Shown: positions 13,984-23,940, numbered from the stretch's first letter. The stretch: 64,000 nt of DNA from a candidate division Kazan bacterium RIFCSPHIGHO2_01_FULL_44_14 (GCA_001771185.1 METB01000001.1:503200-567199); one strand, 5' to 3'. The notes: generated from the sequence alone by a model not told the origin. Numbers and translations are program-made.

Positions 13984-15885
13984 ATGACCAACATTAGAAA
14001 CTTTTGCATAATCGCGCATATTGATCATGGGAAGTCGACTTTGGCTGACCGGCTTTTAGAGTTGACTAATACAATCTCCAGTCGCGAAATGAGAGCGCAG
14101 TATTTGGATACAATGGATCTGGAGCGGGAGCGGGGGATTACGATTAAACTTCAGCCGGTGCGAATGCATTACGATTACCGTCATTCTGGCAAGGGCGCCG
14201 AAGGTGGCCGCGACCAGAATCTTATACGATCCTGGGCAATCCAGGATGACGAGATCAGTGATGGCTTCTATGAATTAAATCTGATAGATACACCAGGGCA
14301 TGTTGATTTTACTTACGAAGTGTCGCGGTCATTGGCGGCCGTAGAGGGGGCACTTCTGGTGGTGGATGCGAGTCAGGGAATTGAAGCCCAAACTTTGGCG
14401 AATCTACACTTGGCTCAAGAACATCATTTAACAATTATTCCAGTTGTAAACAAAATTGATTTGCCGGCAGCGGATCCGGATAGAGTTATTCGAGAGCTCC
14501 AATCGGTAATTGGGATTGAACCCGAAGATGTCATTTTGGTATCAGCTAAAACCGGGGAAGGAGTGGAAAAAATTCTGGATGCGATTGTCGAACGGGTGCC
14601 AGCACCCAAGGGGAATGCGGACGCACCACTTCGGGCGTTAGTATTTGATTCGTATTTTGATCAGTTTCGAGGAGTGGTGGCGTATGTGCGGATTGTTGAT
14701 GGTGAGGTTAAGGCCGGTGATAACATTGTGATGATGGCAAGTAGGGCCAAAGTCGAAGTAATGGAAGTTGGGTGTTTTGCTCCAAAACTAACCAAACAGT
14801 CAATTTTGGAAACGAGTGAGATTGGTTATATCGCAACTGGTTTAAAAGATGTAAGGTCAGTGCGAGTGGGAGACACAATAACTTTGGTGGAACCAAAGTT
14901 AAGTGAAAAGTTAAAAGTGAAAAGTGAAAAGTGGGAGGGAGTGAAGGCGTTGGAGGGGTATAAGCAGGTGATGCCGTTTGTGTATGCGGGAATATTTACT
15001 ATCGATAATGCTGATTTTCCGCAATTAAGGGATGCGTTGGACAAATTACAGCTGAATGACTCTTCGTTGATATTTGAGCCAGAGAGTTCACCGGCTTTGG
15101 GATTTGGTTTTAGATGTGGATTTTTAGGTCTACTTCATTTGGATATTGTCCAAGAACGATTAGAGCGGGAGTTTAATCTGAATTTAGTAACCACTACTCC
15201 GAGTGTAAGTTATGAGGTAACAATGCCAGGGGGTGACAAGAAGATTATTCATAATCCAACTGAATTGCCACCGGCTGGAACTTACAAGGAAATTGCCGAG
15301 CCGTGGATTCGGCTGGAGGTGGTGTGTCCGGCGGAATATGTCGGGAATGTGATGCAGTTGATTCAGGGGAAGCGGGGAGTACAAGTTGATGTGAAATATC
15401 TTGATCCGACTCGGTCAGTACTAATTTATGAAATTCCGTTGGCTTCCGTGGTAACTGAATTTTATGATCAACTTAAAAGTGTGACTTCTGGTTATGCTTC
15501 GATGGCATATGAGATGTTGGAATATCGGGTAGACAATTTGGTGAAGGTAGATATTTTGTTAAATACTAAACCAATTGATACTTTGTCAGTGATTATTCAT
15601 CGGAGCGAAGCCCAAAGAATCGGCCAGAAAATCGCTACCAAACTAAAAGAACTTTTGCCGCGACAGAATTTCAAGATTGTTATCCAGGCCGCGATTGGTG
15701 GGAAGGTAATTGCTCGCGAGGAGCTTTCGCCGTATCGGAAAGATGTGACGGCAAAATTGTATGGTGGAGATGTAACACGCAAGAATAAGCTGTTGGATAA
15801 ACAGAAAAAGGGTAAAAAGCGGATGAAGATGGTGGGAGATGTTGAGATTCCTCAATCAGTATTTCGGAGCATGGTGAGTAATTAA
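13984..15885 (+). CDS. lepA: Elongation factor 4 (LepA) with lineage-specific insertions
   Basis: G1 motif AHIDHGKST and DTPGHVDF; a ~30-aa insertion before DTPGH; an internal tandem DNA repeat at 14899..14935. Confidence 0.9.
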   Translation: MTNIRNFCIIAHIDHGKSTLADRLLELTNTISSREMRAQYLDTMDLERERGITIKLQPVRMHYDYRHSGKGAEGGRDQNLIRSWAIQDDEISDGFYELNLIDTPGHVDFTYEVSRSLAAVEGALLVVDASQGIEAQTLANLHLAQEHHLTIIPVVNKIDLPAADPDRVIRELQSVIGIEPEDVILVSAKTGEGVEKILDAIVERVPAPKGNADAPLRALVFDSYFDQFRGVVAYVRIVDGEVKAGDNIVMMASRAKVEVMEVGCFAPKLTKQSILETSEIGYIATGLKDVRSVRVGDTITLVEPKLSEKLKVKSEKWEGVKALEGYKQVMPFVYAGIFTIDNADFPQLRDALDKLQLNDSSLIFEPESSPALGFGFRCGFLGLLHLDIVQERLEREFNLNLVTTTPSVSYEVTMPGGDKKIIHNPTELPPAGTYKEIAEPWIRLEVVCPAEYVGNVMQLIQGKRGVQVDVKYLDPTRSVLIYEIPLASVVTEFYDQLKSVTSGYASMAYEMLEYRVDNLVKVDILLNTKPIDTLSVIIHRSEAQRIGQKIATKLKELLPRQNFKIVIQAAIGGKVIAREELSPYRKDVTAKLYGGDVTRKNKLLDKQKKGKKRMKMVGDVEIPQSVFRSMVSN

Positions 15886-16299: not shown

Positions 16300-16734
16300 G
16301 TGATTAGCTGGCTCGCGATAGTTGGGCTGACGATAATCGTCGGCTTTATTGGTGGCATCCAGGGAGGGCGGAGACTGGCTGGTGACTGGAAGTCACCAGA
16401 GGAGCAGGTTTTCAACAGCCATCCGCTACTCGCTTGGATACACGCTCTGGCAGCTGTTGCTGGACTCGTGGCGATTGTCGAGGCGTGTCTGGCGAGTGGG
16501 TGGCAGCAGATTGCGCTTTGGTGCGTTGCTGCCTGGCTCTGTCCGGTACTGATGCTTTTGGTATATCGGATAACCTACAGCCAAATTTCCTACACGTCCT
16601 TCCCTCAGTGGCCAGATGTTCGGGGTTGGCTGGCATGGCCGGTGAAGATCGCTGCGGCTCTCCTAATGTGGATCTGCGCCTTGTGCTCGCGGGATGGGTG
16701 GGAGTTGATCCGTGATGAATTCAGCGACCGCTAA
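16300..16734 (+). CDS. hypothetical membrane protein
   Basis: GTG start 6 nt after aggagg; 4 TM helices. Confidence 0.5.
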   Translation: MISWLAIVGLTIIVGFIGGIQGGRRLAGDWKSPEEQVFNSHPLLAWIHALAAVAGLVAIVEACLASGWQQIALWCVAAWLCPVLMLLVYRITYSQISYTSFPQWPDVRGWLAWPVKIAAALLMWICALCSRDGWELIRDEFSDR

Positions 16735-16755: not shown

Positions 16756-16782
16756 AGCCTCGTTGTAAAACGAGGCTTTTTA
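16756..16782 (+). terminator. Rho-independent terminator (aagcctcgtt-gtaaa-acgaggcttttt)
   Basis: hairpin followed by a T-run. Confidence 0.6.
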
Positions 16783-16808
16783 CTAGCAGTACTAGCACTC
16801 TATTGACA
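16782..16808. promoter_or_regulatory. CIRCE operator (HrcA binding site) upstream of hrcA-grpE-dnaK-dnaJ
   Basis: ctagcactc-tattgacaa-gagtgctag matches the CIRCE consensus TTAGCACTC-N9-GAGTGCTAA. Confidence 0.85.
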
Positions 16809-16879
16809 AGAGTGCTAGGGGGGTGTAGAGTGGACTTTGCTACCGCCAATGGCGGGGTTCCGCAGGATGCGGTGATAAT

Positions 16880-17602
16880 TTGACTTTTGGTGGTTTTGTA
16901 TTGAATACGACTGCAGACATGAAGTTAAATACCAGGCAAAAACAGGTCCTGAAGACGATTGTGGAGGAGTATGTGAAACATTCTCTTCCCGTCGGCTCTG
17001 CCCATGTGGTAGAGATGCTACCGTTTTCTGTCAGTTCGGCTACTATCCGAGGGGATATGGTCGAGTTAACCGAAAGTGGACATTTGGCACAGCCACATAC
17101 TTCAGCGGGACGGATTCCAACTGAAGCCGGGTTTAAGGACTATATTGAAACAATGTTGTATGAACACAAAGAATTGTCTTTGCGCCAACAAGAGGTTTTA
17201 TCGACACATTTTAAGCGGTTAAAAAATTTACAGGAAAGATTTAAAGAAGCAGCACGGATGTTATCGGAATTATCTGGGAGCGTGGGACTATTGATGGATG
17301 ATGCAAATCAGATATATATGTCAGGTCTATCCAAGTTGCCACAGTTGCCGGAGTTTCGGGATGAAGAATTTGGGGCGGACTTCATGGAACTACTCGAGAA
17401 TCCGGCCGAAAGTTTTAAGGCATTGATGAAACAAACCAGTAGCCAGCCACAAGTAGTGCTTGGTAAAACCAGCATGGTGGTAACTAAGTTTGGACCGGGT
17501 GGTAGACAGGTTATTTCAGTAATCGGACCAATGAGAATGAGTTATGGGAAAACTTTGCCCGCCGTCGAGTACATTGCAAAAATCCTTAATCAGGATTTTT
17601 AA
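16880..17602 (+). CDS. hrcA: Heat-inducible transcription repressor HrcA (short form)
   Basis: N-terminal wHTH LNTRQKQVLKTIVEEYVKHSLPVGS...SSATIRGDMVELTESGHLAQPHTSAGRIPTE; the real start is probably at 16919. Confidence 0.75.
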   Translation: MTFGGFVLNTTADMKLNTRQKQVLKTIVEEYVKHSLPVGSAHVVEMLPFSVSSATIRGDMVELTESGHLAQPHTSAGRIPTEAGFKDYIETMLYEHKELSLRQQEVLSTHFKRLKNLQERFKEAARMLSELSGSVGLLMDDANQIYMSGLSKLPQLPEFRDEEFGADFMELLENPAESFKALMKQTSSQPQVVLGKTSMVVTKFGPGGRQVISVIGPMRMSYGKTLPAVEYIAKILNQDF

Positions 17603-17629
17603 TATCCAATATCCAATACCCAATGACAA

Positions 17630-18097
17630 ATGAATAAGAAAGCGAAACAATCAGAAGGTAATGTGCCAAAAATCGACTGGGAAGTGAAAGCGAAGGAATA
17701 TGAAGCGGGTTGGAAGCGAGCATTGGCAGATTTAGATAATTATAAAAAAGACGCCGAGAAACGGCAGATGGAGATGGTCCAGTTTTTGAAAGCCAGTTCG
17801 CTGATTAAGTTTTTGGAGATTTATGATGATTTGAAACGAGCAGTTGAATTTGTAACAGATGAGCAGGCCAAGCAAGGATTGATTTCGGTACAGAATAAAT
17901 TCAAGGATTATTTGCATCAAGACGGCCTAGATGAAATTGAGTTTAAGACAGGGGATGAATTTAATCCAGAACTGGCCGAAGCGGTGAGTTATGAGGAAAA
18001 CGAAGTCGGCGAGGGGAAAGTGATTGAAACAATGGAAGTTGGTTTGAAATATAACGATAGAGTAATTAAGCCTGCGAAAGTTCGAGTCGGAAAGTAA
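17630..18097 (+). CDS. grpE: Nucleotide exchange factor GrpE
   Basis: GrpE-like coiled coil (NYKKDAEKRQME) and C-terminal beta region; position in the operon. Confidence 0.7.
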   Translation: MNKKAKQSEGNVPKIDWEVKAKEYEAGWKRALADLDNYKKDAEKRQMEMVQFLKASSLIKFLEIYDDLKRAVEFVTDEQAKQGLISVQNKFKDYLHQDGLDEIEFKTGDEFNPELAEAVSYEENEVGEGKVIETMEVGLKYNDRVIKPAKVRVGK

Positions 18098-18148
18098 TTC
18101 CGACGAGAATCCCACCATCACTTGTGTATGGCGGGATGAGAGAAAGAA

Positions 18149-18475
18149 ATGAATATAAGTAATAAAGTAAAAATCGTCGTATTTGTGCCAGCATCGCATA
18201 CCGACATTGTTCGCGAGGCTATGGGCAAGGCGGGAGCTGGAAAGATCGGCAACTACACAAATTGTAGTTTTTCTTCCAAAGGCATCGGACGATTTAAACC
18301 AGAAGCCGGTGCTAACCCCACGATTGGTGAGGTCGGCAAACTGGAATCCGTTGAGGAGGAGCGCATAGAGATGATGTGCCCAAAAGAAGTCCTGACAAAT
18401 GTAATTGCAGCCATCAAGAGAGTGCATCCGTATGAAGAAGTGGCGTTAGATATTTATCCGTTGGATATTGAATAA
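18149..18475 (+). CDS. small conserved protein, possibly of the Nif3/YqfO C-terminal (PII-like) family
   Basis: 108 aa ending HPYEEVALDIYPLD; inserted between grpE and dnaK. Confidence 0.35.
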   Translation: MNISNKVKIVVFVPASHTDIVREAMGKAGAGKIGNYTNCSFSSKGIGRFKPEAGANPTIGEVGKLESVEEERIEMMCPKEVLTNVIAAIKRVHPYEEVALDIYPLDIE

Positions 18476-18501
18476 TTAATTTTAAAAGCGAGGATGGAAA
18501 A

Positions 18502-19383
18502 GTGAGCAAAAAATTCCAAATTATTAATGGGTTTCAGGGGGAGGTAAAAGTATTTAACGCCCTGACTGATTTACCGATAGCCGATATAGCATCGGGTGTG
18601 CCTTTTGTGAATTCTCTGCAGGAGAGAAAACCCCAAGATTTGGATATTCTATTAACGCTAAAAAGATTTTCCATTCCCACGACTGACTTCAGGATGGAAA
18701 TCATTTTTGCTATTCAGGTTAAGAGTAGTACCGCCGGCTGGCTGATTGACACGGGATTTGACGAAATGACCAATTATCCTAAGAATAATAGGGATTATTT
18801 TTACATGACGCCTGAGCGATTCAGGGGCGCGTTTGACAGAGAAGGGTATGGCGAAGTTTTTTATTTAAAGCTCATTAGCGGCTTGTACGGGCGTACTCCG
18901 CTAATGCATACTGGTTGGCAATTATTTGAGGATGGTAAAGATGGCCAAGCGGGTGTCTTGAAAGATCGAACGGGACAGCGTGATGAGCCAATATATAGGG
19001 GGGCTATAAATGCCCTGGGTTTTGCCATCGAGAAATATCATACGACACTTAATGACTGCGGAGATGAAAAAAATGAGGAGGAATTCAATAGTATAAGGTG
19101 GATAATACCAGTTGTTGTCTTGGACGGAGCCCTGTATGGAAGGGATTTTAAAAAAGAAATCAAGGGCAATGAGATTGAGCCAGAGCCAATCGAGGATAAA
19201 TGGTTTGTGCGCTATATGTGGCTTTTAAAGAAGGGCAGTAACGAAAATTATAATTATGAAATGTCCCCCGTTTTCTATGTGAAATCTGAAGATGTAAAGG
19301 AATTCATAGAATACATTAAACAACAGGTTGAAAATTATAACGCGGATGAAACATTAACTGATTTCAAAAAACGAATTAATTAA
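18502..19383 (+). CDS. hypothetical protein inserted in the heat-shock operon; weak PD-(D/E)xK nuclease-like pattern
   Basis: 293 aa; D..EIIFAIQVK segment; AT-rich codon usage. Confidence 0.45.
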   Translation: MSKKFQIINGFQGEVKVFNALTDLPIADIASGVPFVNSLQERKPQDLDILLTLKRFSIPTTDFRMEIIFAIQVKSSTAGWLIDTGFDEMTNYPKNNRDYFYMTPERFRGAFDREGYGEVFYLKLISGLYGRTPLMHTGWQLFEDGKDGQAGVLKDRTGQRDEPIYRGAINALGFAIEKYHTTLNDCGDEKNEEEFNSIRWIIPVVVLDGALYGRDFKKEIKGNEIEPEPIEDKWFVRYMWLLKKGSNENYNYEMSPVFYVKSEDVKEFIEYIKQQVENYNADETLTDFKKRIN

Positions 19384-19392
19384 GGAGAATCT

Positions 19393-21414
19393 ATGAGCAA
19401 GATCATTGGAATTGATTTGGGGACAACAAACAGTGCGTCAGCAGTAATGCGTGGTGGGAAGCCGGAGATTATTCCATCATCCGAAGGTGGACGGACAGTG
19501 CCGTCGGTGGTAGCACAGAATAAAGCCGGTGAGATTTTGGTTGGGCAGGTGGCCAAGCGGCAGGCGGTGACGAATGCCGAAAATACGATTTATTCTGCCA
19601 AGCGGTTTATTGGCCGTCGGTTTTCTGATTCGTCAGTTCAGGCCGATATTAAATTAATGCCGTTTGCGGTAAAAGAGGGCAGTAATGGTGGGGTAGTGTT
19701 TGCGATGGGCCCCTCGGCGGACTCGGGACAGGTGAGAAATTGGCAACCAGCCGAAATTTCTGCAAAAGTTTTGCAGAAGATCAAGCGGGATGCCGAGGCC
19801 TTCTTGAGTGAACCAGTAACTGAAGCGGTGATTACGGTTCCGGCTTACTTTGATGACTCTCAACGCCAAGCTACTAAAGATGCCGGTAAGATCGCCGGGT
19901 TAGATGTAAAACGAATCATCAATGAACCAACCGCAGCCACATTGGCATATGGTTTGGGCGCCAAGAAGAACGAAAAAGTGGCCATCTATGACTTAGGCGG
20001 TGGAACTTTTGATATTTCCATTTTGGAAATCGGAGATAGCGATGGTGAGTCTGTCTTTGAAGTAAAAGCTACTAATGGTGATACGCATTTGGGTGGTGAT
20101 GATTTTGATCAAAAAATTATTGATTGGATTACCGAAGAGTTCAAGCGCGACCAGGGCGTTGATTTAAAAGAAGATAAATTGGCAATTCAGCGGTTGAAGG
20201 AAGCAGCCGAAAAAGCCAAACATGAATTGTCTAGTGCGGTTGAGACAGAAATTAATATTCCGTTTGTAACAGCCGATGCAACTGGTCCAAAACATTTGGC
20301 AATGAAATTAACTCGGGCCCAGTTAGAGCAACTAGTGGCCGATTTAATCGAACGGACGATGGAGCCGATGAAGAAAGCGCTATCTGATGCTGGCCTTGGT
20401 GTTTCTGACATCAACGAAGTAATTTTGGTCGGTGGGATGACCCGAATGCCGGCGGTGCAAGAATCGGTCAAGAATTTCTTTGGTAAAGAACCAAACCAAA
20501 GCGTGAACCCAGATGAAGCAGTAGCACTAGGGGCTGCCATTCAGGGTGGCGTATTGCAGGGTGATGTGAAAGATGTCCTGCTTCTAGATGTCACACCATT
20601 GTCACTGGGTTTGGAAACTTTGGGTGGAGTAGCGACTAAATTAATCGAACGCAACACGACTATTCCGACCAGCAAGTCACAAGTGTTTTCTACGGCGGCC
20701 GACAATCAACCAAGCGTGGAAATTCATGTAGTCCAGGGTGAGCGGGAAATGGCATCCGATAATAAATCATTAGGTAGATTTGTGCTGGATGGAATTGCGC
20801 CGTCTTCTCGTGGCGTTCCCCAAGTCGAAGTGACATTCGATATTGACGCTAACGGGATTCTGAATGTGAAAGCCACCGATAAAGGTACCGGCAAAGAACA
20901 GCACATTACCATCACCGGTTCTAGCGGTTTGTCCAAGGAAGAAGTTGAGCGGATGGCGAAAGAAGCCGAAGTCCATGCGGCCGAGGATAAACAAAAGAAA
21001 GAAAAGATTGAAGTTCGGAATCAGGCCGATAGTTTAGTTTACACCTCGGAAAAAGCCCTGAAAGATGCGGGAGATAAGGTGGATACGGCAACTAAAGGTC
21101 AAATTGAAGACAGAATTAAGGCGGTTAAAGAAGCACTAGAAAAAGACGATACGGATGCAATAAGAAAAGCGACCGAAGAATTATCAGCAGTGATTCAAAA
21201 GATTGGTCAAGCCATGTATGGACAATCTAACCAATCTCAGCAATCTGATCAATCTAACCAATCCGGACAGGCGGAGACCAAAGACGCTGATTTTACACAA
21301 GAATCTAGTTCAGACGAACCTTCATCTGACTCTGTCAAGGACACATCGGACGAGTCCGACTCCGCTGACACTCCGCCGGACACGCAAAACGATAATGATG
21401 AAAAAGCACTTTGA
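19393..21414 (+). CDS. dnaK: Chaperone DnaK (Hsp70) with a low-complexity Q/S/D-rich C-terminal tail
   Basis: [10 protein letters not shown] and DLGGGTFD motifs. Confidence 0.97.
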
Positions 21415-21477
21415 TAATCAATTGGTCTAAAATGACCAAAAAGAATGTGCTATGATTTAAAGGGTCAAGGGGAACCT

Positions 21478-22197
21478 ATGGGGAAATCAAAAACTGTCTT
21501 ATTGTTAGTTGGATTATTTACAGTGATAGCACTGGCAGGTGTTAGTTGTAGCCGTGGTTTACAGACAACCGATAATGCAGTTGACAATACGCTGGACAAC
21601 ACGGTAGCAGATAACGCAGTTGTTGACAACACGGCAGTAATCAACCCAACCAATCAAACCACCACGACAGTATCTAGTTCTGGTTTGCCAGACCCAGCCA
21701 GCGTTAAGGCCAGTTTGGCCACTGAAACATCTGGTGCAGAGACAGCAGTCAAAACATTGCAGGCAGATGCAGTATTGCAGTTGGTATCGATTAAGTTCAT
21801 CAATTCACTGTCTGACCAGACCGGGTTATCGACTAACTATTACATTTACGCGTCAGCTTCGAATCCTAACTTCTACTATTTGGTGAACATGCCAAGAAAC
21901 GGTGAGAAGTTGAAGCGGTTCTTAATGCCGGTTGAGGATTTGGATTTGCCGTTTGATTTGTTGCAGATTCCAGTTAAGTATTGGAAATTGTCTTACGCGG
22001 AGGCCCTACAAAGTGTTGAGCAACGAGGTGGCAGTGATTTTCGGGCTAAGCACAAAACCTTTGAAGTGTCGGCGATTCTGGCAATTCCAGCTGGCCAGTA
22101 CTTGAGTTGGTTTGTGACTTATCGGGCGACCGATGGAACCGGAGATGTGTTGAAAGCGTCGGTGGATGCAAATTCGGGTGCAGTCAGTTTGATTTGA
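21478..22197 (+). CDS. hypothetical secreted protein with N-terminal signal peptide and DN(A/T)-rich repeats
   Basis: MGKSKTVLLLVGLFTVIALAGVSC signal-like N-terminus; start taken at the internal ATG with RBS. Confidence 0.5.
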   Translation: MGKSKTVLLLVGLFTVIALAGVSCSRGLQTTDNAVDNTLDNTVADNAVVDNTAVINPTNQTTTTVSSSGLPDPASVKASLATETSGAETAVKTLQADAVLQLVSIKFINSLSDQTGLSTNYYIYASASNPNFYYLVNMPRNGEKLKRFLMPVEDLDLPFDLLQIPVKYWKLSYAEALQSVEQRGGSDFRAKHKTFEVSAILAIPAGQYLSWFVTYRATDGTGDVLKASVDANSGAVSLI

Positions 22198-22206
22198 CGA
22201 AAACGG

Positions 22207-22440
22207 ATGATTATTTTCGTTATTTCCGTGCCCGTCCGCAACGATTCGCCAGCCCGTAGTGGATACAACATTTCTGGCGGGCGTAGCGATTCTGGCAGGA
22301 AAACGGGAATCCAGAAAGAAACTGACGTCCTTGCGTCATCCTCGGGGCCACCGCTAGGTGGAGCCCGGGGAACCAGACATAAAAAGATTTTTATTTTCTT
22401 TTCTAAATCCCCGGGTCAAGCCCGAGGATGACTTAAAGGA
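22207..22440. repeat. Composite repeat: family A palindromic element (22231..22312) plus a gtcatcctcgggg...cccgaggatgac hairpin element (22336..22432)
   Basis: 22231..22312 is near-identical to 49186..49267; the 22336..22432 inverted repeat shares gtcatcctcggg / gagcccgggga / aaaaagatttt with 55845..56030. Confidence 0.75.
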
Positions 22441-22491
22441 CGCGCACGGGTGGTTTGAAGAATGTTCAGGGGTGACTTTTGAAATTTATTT

Positions 22492-23565
22492 ATGGCGAAA
22501 GATTACTACGACATTTTGGGCGTGGCAAAAGGTGCTACGCCTGATGAAATTAAAAAAGCTTATCGGAAGCTGGCTTTAAAGTACCATCCTGACAAAGGTG
22601 AAAATGGTAACGCGGAAAAATTCAAAGAAGTGAATGAGGCCTATCAGGTATTGGGAAGCGAAGAAAAGCGGCGGCAGTACGACCAGTTTGGTCATTCATT
22701 TGAAGGAGCCGGTTCTGCTGGACAGCATTATGATTTTAGCGGATTCAACACTCAAGGGTTTGGTGGGTTTGAAGATGTGTTCGATGCTTTTTTTGGCGGT
22801 CAAAGAACGGCTCGGCGCCAGAGCCCAGCCGATATTAAGCGAGGTGCCGATTTAGAAGTTGCCATTGAAATTCCTTTTGAAACCGCCGTATTTGGCGGTA
22901 AACAGACCATCCATTTATCTAAAGACACAGTTTGTGAAAGTTGTGGTGGGACTGGCTCAACGAATAAAAAAATGAAGGCCTGTGCCAAATGCCATGGTAC
23001 TGGTCAGATTGATCAAGTCAGACAAACATTGTTGGGAGCAATTCGTCAAAGTCGGGTTTGTTCGGAATGCAAGGGATTAGGAGAAATGCCGGAACAAACT
23101 TGTCGGTCATGTACTGGGGCAGGACGGACTAAACAACCAGGCGGAGTAAATATTACCATTCCTGATGGGATTGATGATGGACAGACCATTCGAGTGCCTC
23201 ATGAAGGATCAGCTGGCTTCCGAGGCGGTAAACCAGGCGATTTATATGTGACGGTTCATGTTACACCTAGCCGAGAATACAAACGGAAAGAATTTGATTT
23301 GTACAAAACCATTTCCATTCCATTTACAACTGCGGTATTGGGTGGGAGCGTGAAAGTTGAAACGCTAGACGGCAAAATTGATTTAAAAATCCCGTCAGCA
23401 ACGCAACGCGGAGAAACCTTAAAGGCCAGAGGGTTGGGAGTGCCGAAAATTAATTCAACTGGCAGGGGAGATTTGTATTTGACGATCGATATCACGGTTC
23501 CAAAACGATTGACTTTGAAACAACGCAAGTTACTACAGGAGTTAGACAGAGAGTGGAAGGAATAA
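22492..23565 (+). CDS. dnaJ: Chaperone DnaJ
   Basis: J-domain with HPD (KYHPDK), G/F region, four CxxCxGxG zinc-finger repeats. Confidence 0.95.
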
Positions 23566-23567
23566 AA

Positions 23568-23597
23568 ATGCCTCACGGTTAGGTGAGGCATAAAAAT
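23568..23597. terminator. Hairpin atgcctcac-ggttaggt-gaggcat flanked by A-runs (T-run on the minus strand); terminator for the convergent genes
   Basis: 9-bp stem. Confidence 0.55.
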
Positions 23598-23613: not shown

Positions 23614-23940
23614 TCAAACGCAAGTGGGACATCTCGCGAAGTATTTGTCGAGGTACATTCGGGTGTCGATTGGTATGGTTTTGTTTCGATGAATTTTGCT
23701 AAGTTCAACAAAACATTCTTCGTTTAGACATCCTGCGGGTGTGGTCAGGTCAAAGGGAGGATATCCCAATAAACTTTCCCGATAATCCCCGCATAGTTCG
23801 CGAACCGCTGTTTGGATTGAATGCCAGTCGTTAACCGACTTGAGTTTGCCTAGCAGTATTTGCAGGCGATCGATGCAGCTCTTGGTGTCAATGGGATGAC
23901 ATTTGACGATTTTCTCCAGTTTAGACGGACCAGATGCCAT
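23614..23940 (-). CDS. hypothetical Cys-rich small protein
   Basis: seven Cys including a C-terminal CPTC; terminator hairpin downstream on the minus strand. Confidence 0.45.
   Translation of the reverse strand: MASGPSKLEKIVKCHPIDTKSCIDRLQILLGKLKSVNDWHSIQTAVRELCGDYRESLLGYPPFDLTTPAGCLNEECFVELSKIHRNKTIPIDTRMYLDKYFARCPTCV

Follow-up and report, generated by a model that had tools for sequence, protein, structure and literature searches.

Positions 16,756 to 23,565 of the 64,000-nt stretch of DNA analyzed here (candidate division Kazan bacterium RIFCSPHIGHO2_01_FULL_44_14, GCA_001771185.1 METB01000001.1:503200-567199; the whole stretch is hereafter referred to as the window) are occupied by a class I heat-shock operon of the HrcA/CIRCE (controlling inverted repeat of chaperone expression) type, from an uncultured groundwater bacterium of the Kazan lineage of the Candidate Phyla Radiation (CPR)/Patescibacteria. 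The open reading frame (ORF) listing and the Pfam and NCBIfam scans gave the gene order, all on the plus strand, as hrcA, grpE, p108, p293, dnaK, p250 and dnaJ. The position between p108 and dnaK is very probably a hypervariable slot with a conserved leader in Kazan-type operons. Taken as a whole, the region is best explained as a heat-shock operon with such a slot and, within it, a stress-made protein, p293, that may be of nuclease type, a composite reading that we regard as reasonably probable. The operon type is already known, and the three lineage-specific passengers inside it are new, as is a slot with a conserved leader ahead of dnaK in one CPR clade; a search of the literature returned nothing on dnaK operons in Patescibacteria or on a slot of this kind. 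Few gene arrangements in bacteria are as conserved as the dnaK operon, and CPR genomes are small and streamlined, so a gene-swapping slot with a constant leader was unexpected here.

Kazan-type operons were gathered through homologues of p108, together with loci from earlier homologue searches. The gene found in the slot was p293 in the window, P0004 (253 aa) in locus L011, a 294-aa protein (L093_294) in L093 and L094, a 275-aa protein (L095_275) in L095 and L096, a 164-aa protein in L006, a 136-aa protein in L012, L101 and L102, and another 164-aa protein in L092, whereas L097 and L098 had three small genes (105, 74 and 128 aa). The occupants of L006, L012/L101/L102 and L092 each have about three transmembrane (TM) segments, and this similar architecture is not accompanied by any detectable similarity to each other. 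The slot was empty in L007, L099 and L104, and in L004 and L005 p108 was also absent, dnaK directly following grpE. Whatever the gene, AATTAATTTYAAAAGYGAGG was found ahead of every occupied slot, with the start codon 7-8 nt past GAGG, and this leader was absent from the empty slots. Its folding energy was no better than that of shuffled sequences (z between 0 and -1.7), giving no sign of RNA structure or of a thermometer. The initial annotation had considered that the genes inserted between grpE and dnaK might be specific to the lineage, and the comparison of gene order supports this view: grpE and dnaK are direct neighbors in two genomes, others have only p108, and none of the seven loci identified in representative genomes of the Genome Taxonomy Database (GTDB) has the p293 gene. 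The contrary case named by the same annotation, relatives that share the gene order and in which both inserts have a housekeeping annotation, was not encountered.

Variable cargo between conserved flanks is a feature of the defence hotspots of prophages and their satellites and of integron cassettes. The Kazan slot is similar to these in that it holds unrelated genes at a fixed position and is empty in some genomes. It differs in lying inside an essential housekeeping operon, in showing neither a recombinase nor an attachment site or cassette repeat, and in that the conserved element is a translation-initiation leader rather than a recombination site. In L092 (3827-3963), the leader lies about 105 nt past the p108 stop codon, and the stretch contains, besides a hairpin, a sequence similar to p108 3' ends of other genomes (GAAATGAATGAATTAATTTT). 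This remnant hints at cassette exchange by recombination, of which the stretch may be a scar. A second variable position was observed in L095 (2615-3490) and L096 (883-1758), where an additional 291-aa gene lies between grpE and p108; its product (L095_291) had no Pfam or PADLOC match.

There is little doubt about the operon and its control by CIRCE. The initial annotation had described a CIRCE-controlled hrcA-grpE-dnaK-dnaJ operon, and both the perfect CIRCE and the identities of all four genes were confirmed. It placed two extra genes between grpE and dnaK, which is correct for both, but overlooked a third interposed gene, p250, between dnaK and dnaJ. The CIRCE sequence TAGCACTC-N9-GAGTGCTA was the single match in the window, with 0 mismatches (8+9+8), 0.02 matches being expected from shuffles. 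Compared with the full 27-nt consensus (TTAGCACTC-N9-GAGTGCTAA) it has two mismatches, and CIRCE elements with no more than two mismatches were identified ahead of hrcA in five related genomes (L004-L008). The best promoter-like site of the region, which presumably acts as the promoter to judge from its consensus match, carries a -35 hexamer that falls within the CIRCE spacer, and TTGAC(A/G) was found inside the 9-nt spacer in all six Kazan-type genomes (the window and L004-L008). Bound HrcA would thus sit right on the -35 box.

A hairpin followed by a T-run just upstream of CIRCE is probably the terminator of the upstream ORF, orf144, and would separate it from the heat-shock operon. The consensus terminator scan of the region made no intergenic plus-strand call, the plus-strand terminator-like sites being confined to coding regions, and no Rfam match was obtained for the region. 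The intergenic gaps between hrcA and p250 are 9-51 nt long, and we infer co-transcription from this spacing and from the absence of intergenic terminator calls. Contigs carrying the operon from several groundwater metagenomes are identical to the window over the region, and the closest genomes are Kazan/Patescibacteria metagenome-assembled genomes. The five contigs with p293 are likewise identical across the region, and hence provide no strain-level variation for a ratio of nonsynonymous to synonymous substitutions (dN/dS).

The class I operon of Bacillus subtilis and Clostridium has the same four core genes in the same order, with hrcA first, and a CIRCE with a 9-nt spacer that lies upstream of hrcA and overlaps the promoter. 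In B. subtilis, extra genes come after dnaJ. By contrast with these operons, the Kazan operon holds p108, p293 and p250 inside it, has the -35 hexamer inside the CIRCE spacer in the six genomes mentioned above, and has a structured gap of 294 nt before dnaJ. The HrcA protein also differs, lacking about 100 residues relative to the TIGR00331 model (227-240 aa against 338 positions). Because the protein is short, its score (153.7 bits) falls below the equivalog cut-off of this model (197.2 bits); the PF01628 score is above gathering. The short form is retained in the relatives, with 47-89% identity, and with 70-89% in one of the comparisons. The start of hrcA is ambiguous between TTG at 16880, TTG at 16901, which has a GGTGG ribosome-binding site, and ATG at 16919, and gene calls on identical contigs gave proteins of 233 and 227 aa.

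The p293 ORF starts 26 nt past p108 and ends 9 nt ahead of dnaK, and its product has no predicted TM segment. When p293 was run against 5.8 billion clusters in a word-indexed search, only p293 itself came back, and a search with the profile of p293 and P0004 returned only those two. HMMER, run in full over 1.84 billion representatives, gave four proteins, with P0004 as the single true relative; P0002 (5185 aa) and P0003 (2186 aa) are long repeat proteins matching in many weak stretches and were discarded as spurious. P0004 is 29% identical to p293 in a full-length alignment; the shared motifs are distributed along its entire length, and the frame is intact. It is encoded on a 928-bp contig (L011) on which the next ORF starts with a Kazan-type DnaK N-terminus, 98% identical to that of the window. 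This places P0004 at the corresponding position of another Kazan genome, and the leader ahead of it resembles that of the window. L093_294 is a probable remote relative, since hhalign aligned it with the profile of p293 and P0004 over residues 9-101 (probability 74.6%, E 2.7e-5). As judged from these searches, p293 appears to have two relatives only, both in the same slot.

The alignment of the three members (p293, P0004 and L093_294) has invariant residues at G10, F11, E14, D48, I49, K74 and W80, and further ones in A-I-N (168-170) and P203-x-V-V. The position before x-K is Q in p293 (Q72-V-K74), A in P0004 (A-V-K) and E in L093_294 (E-A-K, the canonical form). A low-confidence AlphaFold2 (AF2) model made from two sequences has a helix (residues 12-22) followed by four strands, in which E14 falls on the helix, D48 opens a strand and Q72-V-K74 closes the following one, a placement that suggests the layout of a PD-(D/E)xK core. 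Verified sequences of the archaeal Holliday-junction resolvase Hjc were taken from the PDB (1GEF and others) and aligned, and their profile was compared with the p293 family by hhalign. In the sole alignment obtained, E14/E9, D48/D33 and Q72xK74/E46xK48 were in register, and p293 would have the Glu, Asp and x-K in the same order and with the same spacing as Hjc and minimal PD-(D/E)xK nucleases. Unlike Hjc, two of the three members of the p293 family have Gln or Ala for the second acidic residue, and p293 exceeds Hjc in length more than twofold; its C-terminal half, of unassigned fold, is conserved (AIN-x-G, P-V-V-V, PV-x-YV).

Several results weigh against a stress-made protein of nuclease type. 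The acidic residue of (D/E)xK is the one replaced in p293 and P0004, and the similarity to Hjc was not significant (hhalign probability 1.7%, P 0.03). No usable match came from searches of Pfam, NCBIfam, PADLOC, PHROGs and PDB sequences in which p293, its N-terminal 112 residues, P0004, L093_294, L095_275 and profiles A1 and A5 served as queries. The AF2 models had a pLDDT of 32 with a single sequence and of 45 with two sequences (pTM 0.52), both too low for fold assignment, and Foldseek found no PDB hit with E <= 0.001. By HMMER, the case for homology of L093_294 was no more than marginal (E 0.04 in a set of 4757 ORFs), and L095_275, with its look-alike motifs G-x-x-F-E, E-C-D, E-C-K and L-P-V-V-V, was not counted in the family because its relation to p293 lacks statistical support. 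Finally, promoter-like sites are as numerous in the region as shuffles predict. A match to PLS9-PPR was also rejected, as a coincidence over a 19-residue repeat.

The faint PD-(D/E)xK-like segment seen by the initial annotation is thus weakly upheld by the invariant E14, D48 and K74 and by the E-x-K of the remote member, but not by any profile match; the profile searches and structure prediction of p293 that it had proposed gave the motif layout and no significant profile or fold match. We did not file p293 under PD-(D/E)xK because of the missing significant profile match, and it may still work like a protein of this kind. A PD-(D/E)xK fold seems to us possible but doubtful, and an active nuclease unlikely; the nuclease assignment is put forward as a hypothesis at the level of motifs.

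According to the established model for HrcA and CIRCE in Firmicutes, HrcA bound to CIRCE would block the promoter at rest, and unfolded-protein stress would inactivate HrcA, as in the GroEL-titration model of B. subtilis. A single polycistronic mRNA would then be made, from hrcA to at least p250, and p108 and p293 would be translated from their own ribosome-binding sites alongside the chaperones. In this view p293 would be an accessory protein that the cell can do without and that evolves fast, made under proteotoxic stress only, rather than a core component of the chaperone machinery, and would most likely act as a Mg2+-dependent nuclease of PD-(D/E)xK type or as a nucleic-acid-binding protein derived from such a nuclease.

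Among the other explanations of p293, the one that comes closest is that it and the other occupants are stress-triggered conflict genes (anti-phage or abortive-infection effectors, or toxins) in a slot wired to the HrcA sensor, which we nevertheless consider improbable. In that case infection or other proteotoxic stress would lift the repression of the operon, and an effector, nuclease-like or membrane-active, would be released. The polymorphism in presence and content of the slot between close relatives, beside highly conserved neighbors, would fit this idea, as would the low identity of p293 and P0004 (29%) next to DnaK N-termini that are 98% identical, but such rapid divergence could be explained equally well by relaxed constraint. 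The occupants include nuclease-like soluble proteins and small multi-TM proteins, the two classes typical of defence effectors; however, none of them had a PADLOC or PHROG match, no partner immunity or sensor gene was visible, and no relatives were found in the phage, plasmid and viral collections. PADLOC-DB has no family for p108, p293, p250, P0004, L093_294, L095_275 or L095_291. A stronger version, in which the slot is a dedicated, leader-equipped expression site for interchangeable stress-triggered effectors, and hence a heat-shock-coupled defence or abortive-infection module undescribed so far, has in our opinion a slightly smaller chance still; coupled to HrcA as its sensor of unfolded proteins, the site would respond to proteotoxic stress, for instance a phage taking over the cell, by releasing an effector directed against the cell itself or the invader. 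Next in order of likelihood, and on a par with that version, p293 could be a lineage-specific chaperone accessory, that is, a protein that regulates DnaK or HrcA, acts as an adaptor for them or delivers clients to them. Its family is known only from inside the operon, directly upstream of dnaK (9 nt), and a precedent exists in Chlamydia, where HagF is reported to be a lineage-specific heat-induced modulator feeding back on HrcA (PMC12154930). HagF and p293 are alike as lineage-restricted proteins tied to the HrcA regulon, but p293 lacks conservation even among Kazan genomes, and no sequence relation between the two is expected. A dedicated partner should co-evolve with the conserved DnaK or HrcA and be as widespread as they are, whereas p293 diverges about 10 times faster than DnaK and is absent, or replaced by unrelated membrane proteins, in close relatives.

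The initial annotation had suggested an AT-rich insertion hitch-hiking on heat-shock expression. Such a recent foreign insertion, presumably the remnant of a mobile element or phage, could be imagined for a gene that is missing from all seven GTDB representative loci and is an orphan among 5.8 billion clusters. However, AT-richness does not set p293 apart: its GC content (0.400) is that of grpE (0.402), and its GC at third codon positions (GC3, 0.415) and synonymous codon choice are indistinguishable from those of its neighbors. The terminal direct and inverted repeats at its flanks are only short and at chance level, the ORF listing and Pfam scan revealed no integrase, transposase or other recombinase gene in the operon, and neither tblastn against phage and plasmid collections nor a scan of viral contigs found relatives of p293. 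A recent foreign origin is therefore very unlikely, and a further argument against the hitch-hiking suggestion is that the relatives of p293 in other Kazan genomes are found at exactly this position, behind the same leader. That p293 is a spurious ORF or a decaying, non-functional remnant is hardly credible. It has no known domain, and its predicted structure is of low confidence, but the ORF takes up the entire space between p108 and dnaK, has GAGGA as a ribosome-binding site 7 nt ahead of its start codon, has native codon use, and has a full-length relative in which, at 29% identity, conserved motifs are present throughout and the frame is intact.

The preferred reading, a variable slot with a stress-made occupant, would make the slot a defined place in which to seek accessory functions switched on only under protein-folding stress in uncultured bacteria. 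If p293 is a nuclease, it founds a new, very small PD-(D/E)xK family. If none of these readings holds, the region is a normal heat-shock operon with lineage-specific hypothetical genes.

The other inserted protein, p108, is almost certainly a stand-alone YqfO-like domain of the PII/CutA type. Its residues 7-106 match residues 162-261 of 2gx8_A (YqfO of Bacillus cereus, BC_4286; E 9.3e-34), 58 of the 100 residues of this YqfO insert being identical (58%), and it also matches PDB 3lnl/2nyd (E 1.4e-15). The Pfam P-II model gave a match below its cut-off (E 0.0077), and a PII/CutA-like fold would be expected by analogy with the solved structure of the insert. The HPYE motif is at residues 93-96, and the 108-aa protein has no NIF3 Pfam hit, i.e., it lacks the NIF3 (COG0327) core. 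In this motif, in a length of about 105 aa and in the missing core it agrees with other stand-alone forms of the domain. The initial annotation had suspected a Nif3/YqfO C-terminal or PII-like fold; the YqfO-related, PII-like part of this proposal was right, but the homologous segment of YqfO is a middle insert (2GX8 162-261) and not the C-terminus. p108 is identical to A3K24_02635, a hypothetical protein of candidate division Kazan bacterium RIFCSPHIGHO2_01_FULL_44_14. Its family comprises >2143 clusters (90% identity) and is named 'YqfO family protein' at NCBI; it is thus known and widespread, with no function assigned to it. The HPYE motif defines COG3323/IPR015867, for which stand-alone forms have been described (PMC8469502), and a 103-aa Pseudomonas example, YqfO03 of P. 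syringae, has been studied (PMC6321441).

In five loci (L092, L093, L097, L099 and L101), p108 was 78-84% identical to that of the window, compared with 71-75% for DnaK, 41-45% for GrpE and 39-52% for HrcA. Since p108 exceeds even DnaK and GrpE in identity, it is under strong constraint, unusually so for a protein without an assigned function. Its location in a heat-shock operon sets it apart from other stand-alone YqfO-like genes: dnaK adjoins the p108 homologue in only 3 of 80 other metagenome loci (L012-L091), two of the three belonging to another lineage. A general linkage of p108 with dnaK was rejected on this count, the remaining neighbors being heterogeneous. In Patescibacteria, the commonest neighbors of stand-alone YqfO-like genes were a NUDIX hydrolase (10 of the 80 loci) and secA (8 loci), and a NUDIX-COG3323 fusion has been mentioned for Fusobacterium nucleatum (PMC8469502). 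The stand-alone COG3323 domain thereby gains a regulatory context, predicted co-expression with DnaK, in one lineage. An independent p108-dnaK-dnaJ adjacency was observed in L083 (627-3032) and L084, from a different lineage (DnaK 63% identical), with ASCH-like small genes upstream, no grpE upstream and no CIRCE within three mismatches. On a 2746-bp contig from JGI sample 3300075153, in a context unrelated to chaperones, a p108 homologue immediately follows a 173-aa protein with weak Zeta-toxin/AAA_33 kinase-like matches and precedes a DUF1653 protein.

The third passenger, p250, is retained between dnaK and dnaJ in all Kazan relatives (36-82% identity). Its N-terminus has a signal peptide with a lipobox-like LAGVSC, and its C-terminal part may be PepSY-like; no match to p250 was found in Pfam, NCBIfam, the PDB or PADLOC. 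The gap that follows has hairpins at about 22340-22372 and 22400-22430 and a T-rich run at 22386-22405, and the corresponding gap ahead of dnaJ in the relatives is 72 to 221 nt long. No plus-strand promoter or terminator call and no Rfam match were obtained within it. From its sequence, the gap may be an internal attenuator or terminator, or dnaJ may be a separate transcription unit. The coordinates of all these features are given in Table 1.

Table 1. Features of the heat-shock operon and its surroundings, in window coordinates
Feature	Position	Strand	Description and evidence
lepA	13984-15885	+	ORF listing, Pfam/NCBIfam scans
orf144	16300-16734	+	144-aa hydrophobic membrane ORF upstream of the operon
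Hairpin and T-run	16756-16782	+	aagcctcgttgtaaaacgaggcttttt; probable terminator; direct sequence reading, not listed by the consensus terminator scan
CIRCE operator	16793-16817	+	TAGCACTC-TATTGACAA-GAGTGCTA; predicted HrcA binding site
Sigma-70-like promoter (putative)	16803-16831	+	TTGACA-17 nt-TAGAGT; consensus match only, 10/12 positions
hrcA	16901-17602	+	Short form, 227-240 aa; PF01628 E 6.6e-13, TIGR00331 E 8.8e-45
grpE	17630-18097	+	PF01025 E 2.9e-30
p108	18149-18475	+	Stand-alone YqfO-like (COG3323) PII/CutA-like domain protein; ends ...HPYEEVALDIYPLDIE
Leader	18474-18501	+	AATTAATTTTAAAAGCGAGG, 20 nt, with ribosome-binding site GAGGA, then 7-nt spacer; single in the window
p293	18502-19383	+	Slot occupant, soluble orphan protein, 293 aa; GTG start
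dnaK	19393-21414	+	PF00012 E 1.3e-257
p250	21445-22197	+	Signal-peptide/lipoprotein-like, 250 aa
Spacer, 294 nt	22198-22491	+	G+C-rich hairpins, then T-rich run; sequence reading
dnaJ	22492-23565	+	PF00226, PF00684, PF01556
Hairpin	23568-23591	.	Between convergent dnaJ and the minus-strand ORF 23614-23940; T-run on minus strand only

The upstream gene, orf144, stands out by its composition, with a GC content of 0.57 and a GC3 of 0.63 against a window mean of 0.457; it had no family match and is the poorest match to local codon choice.

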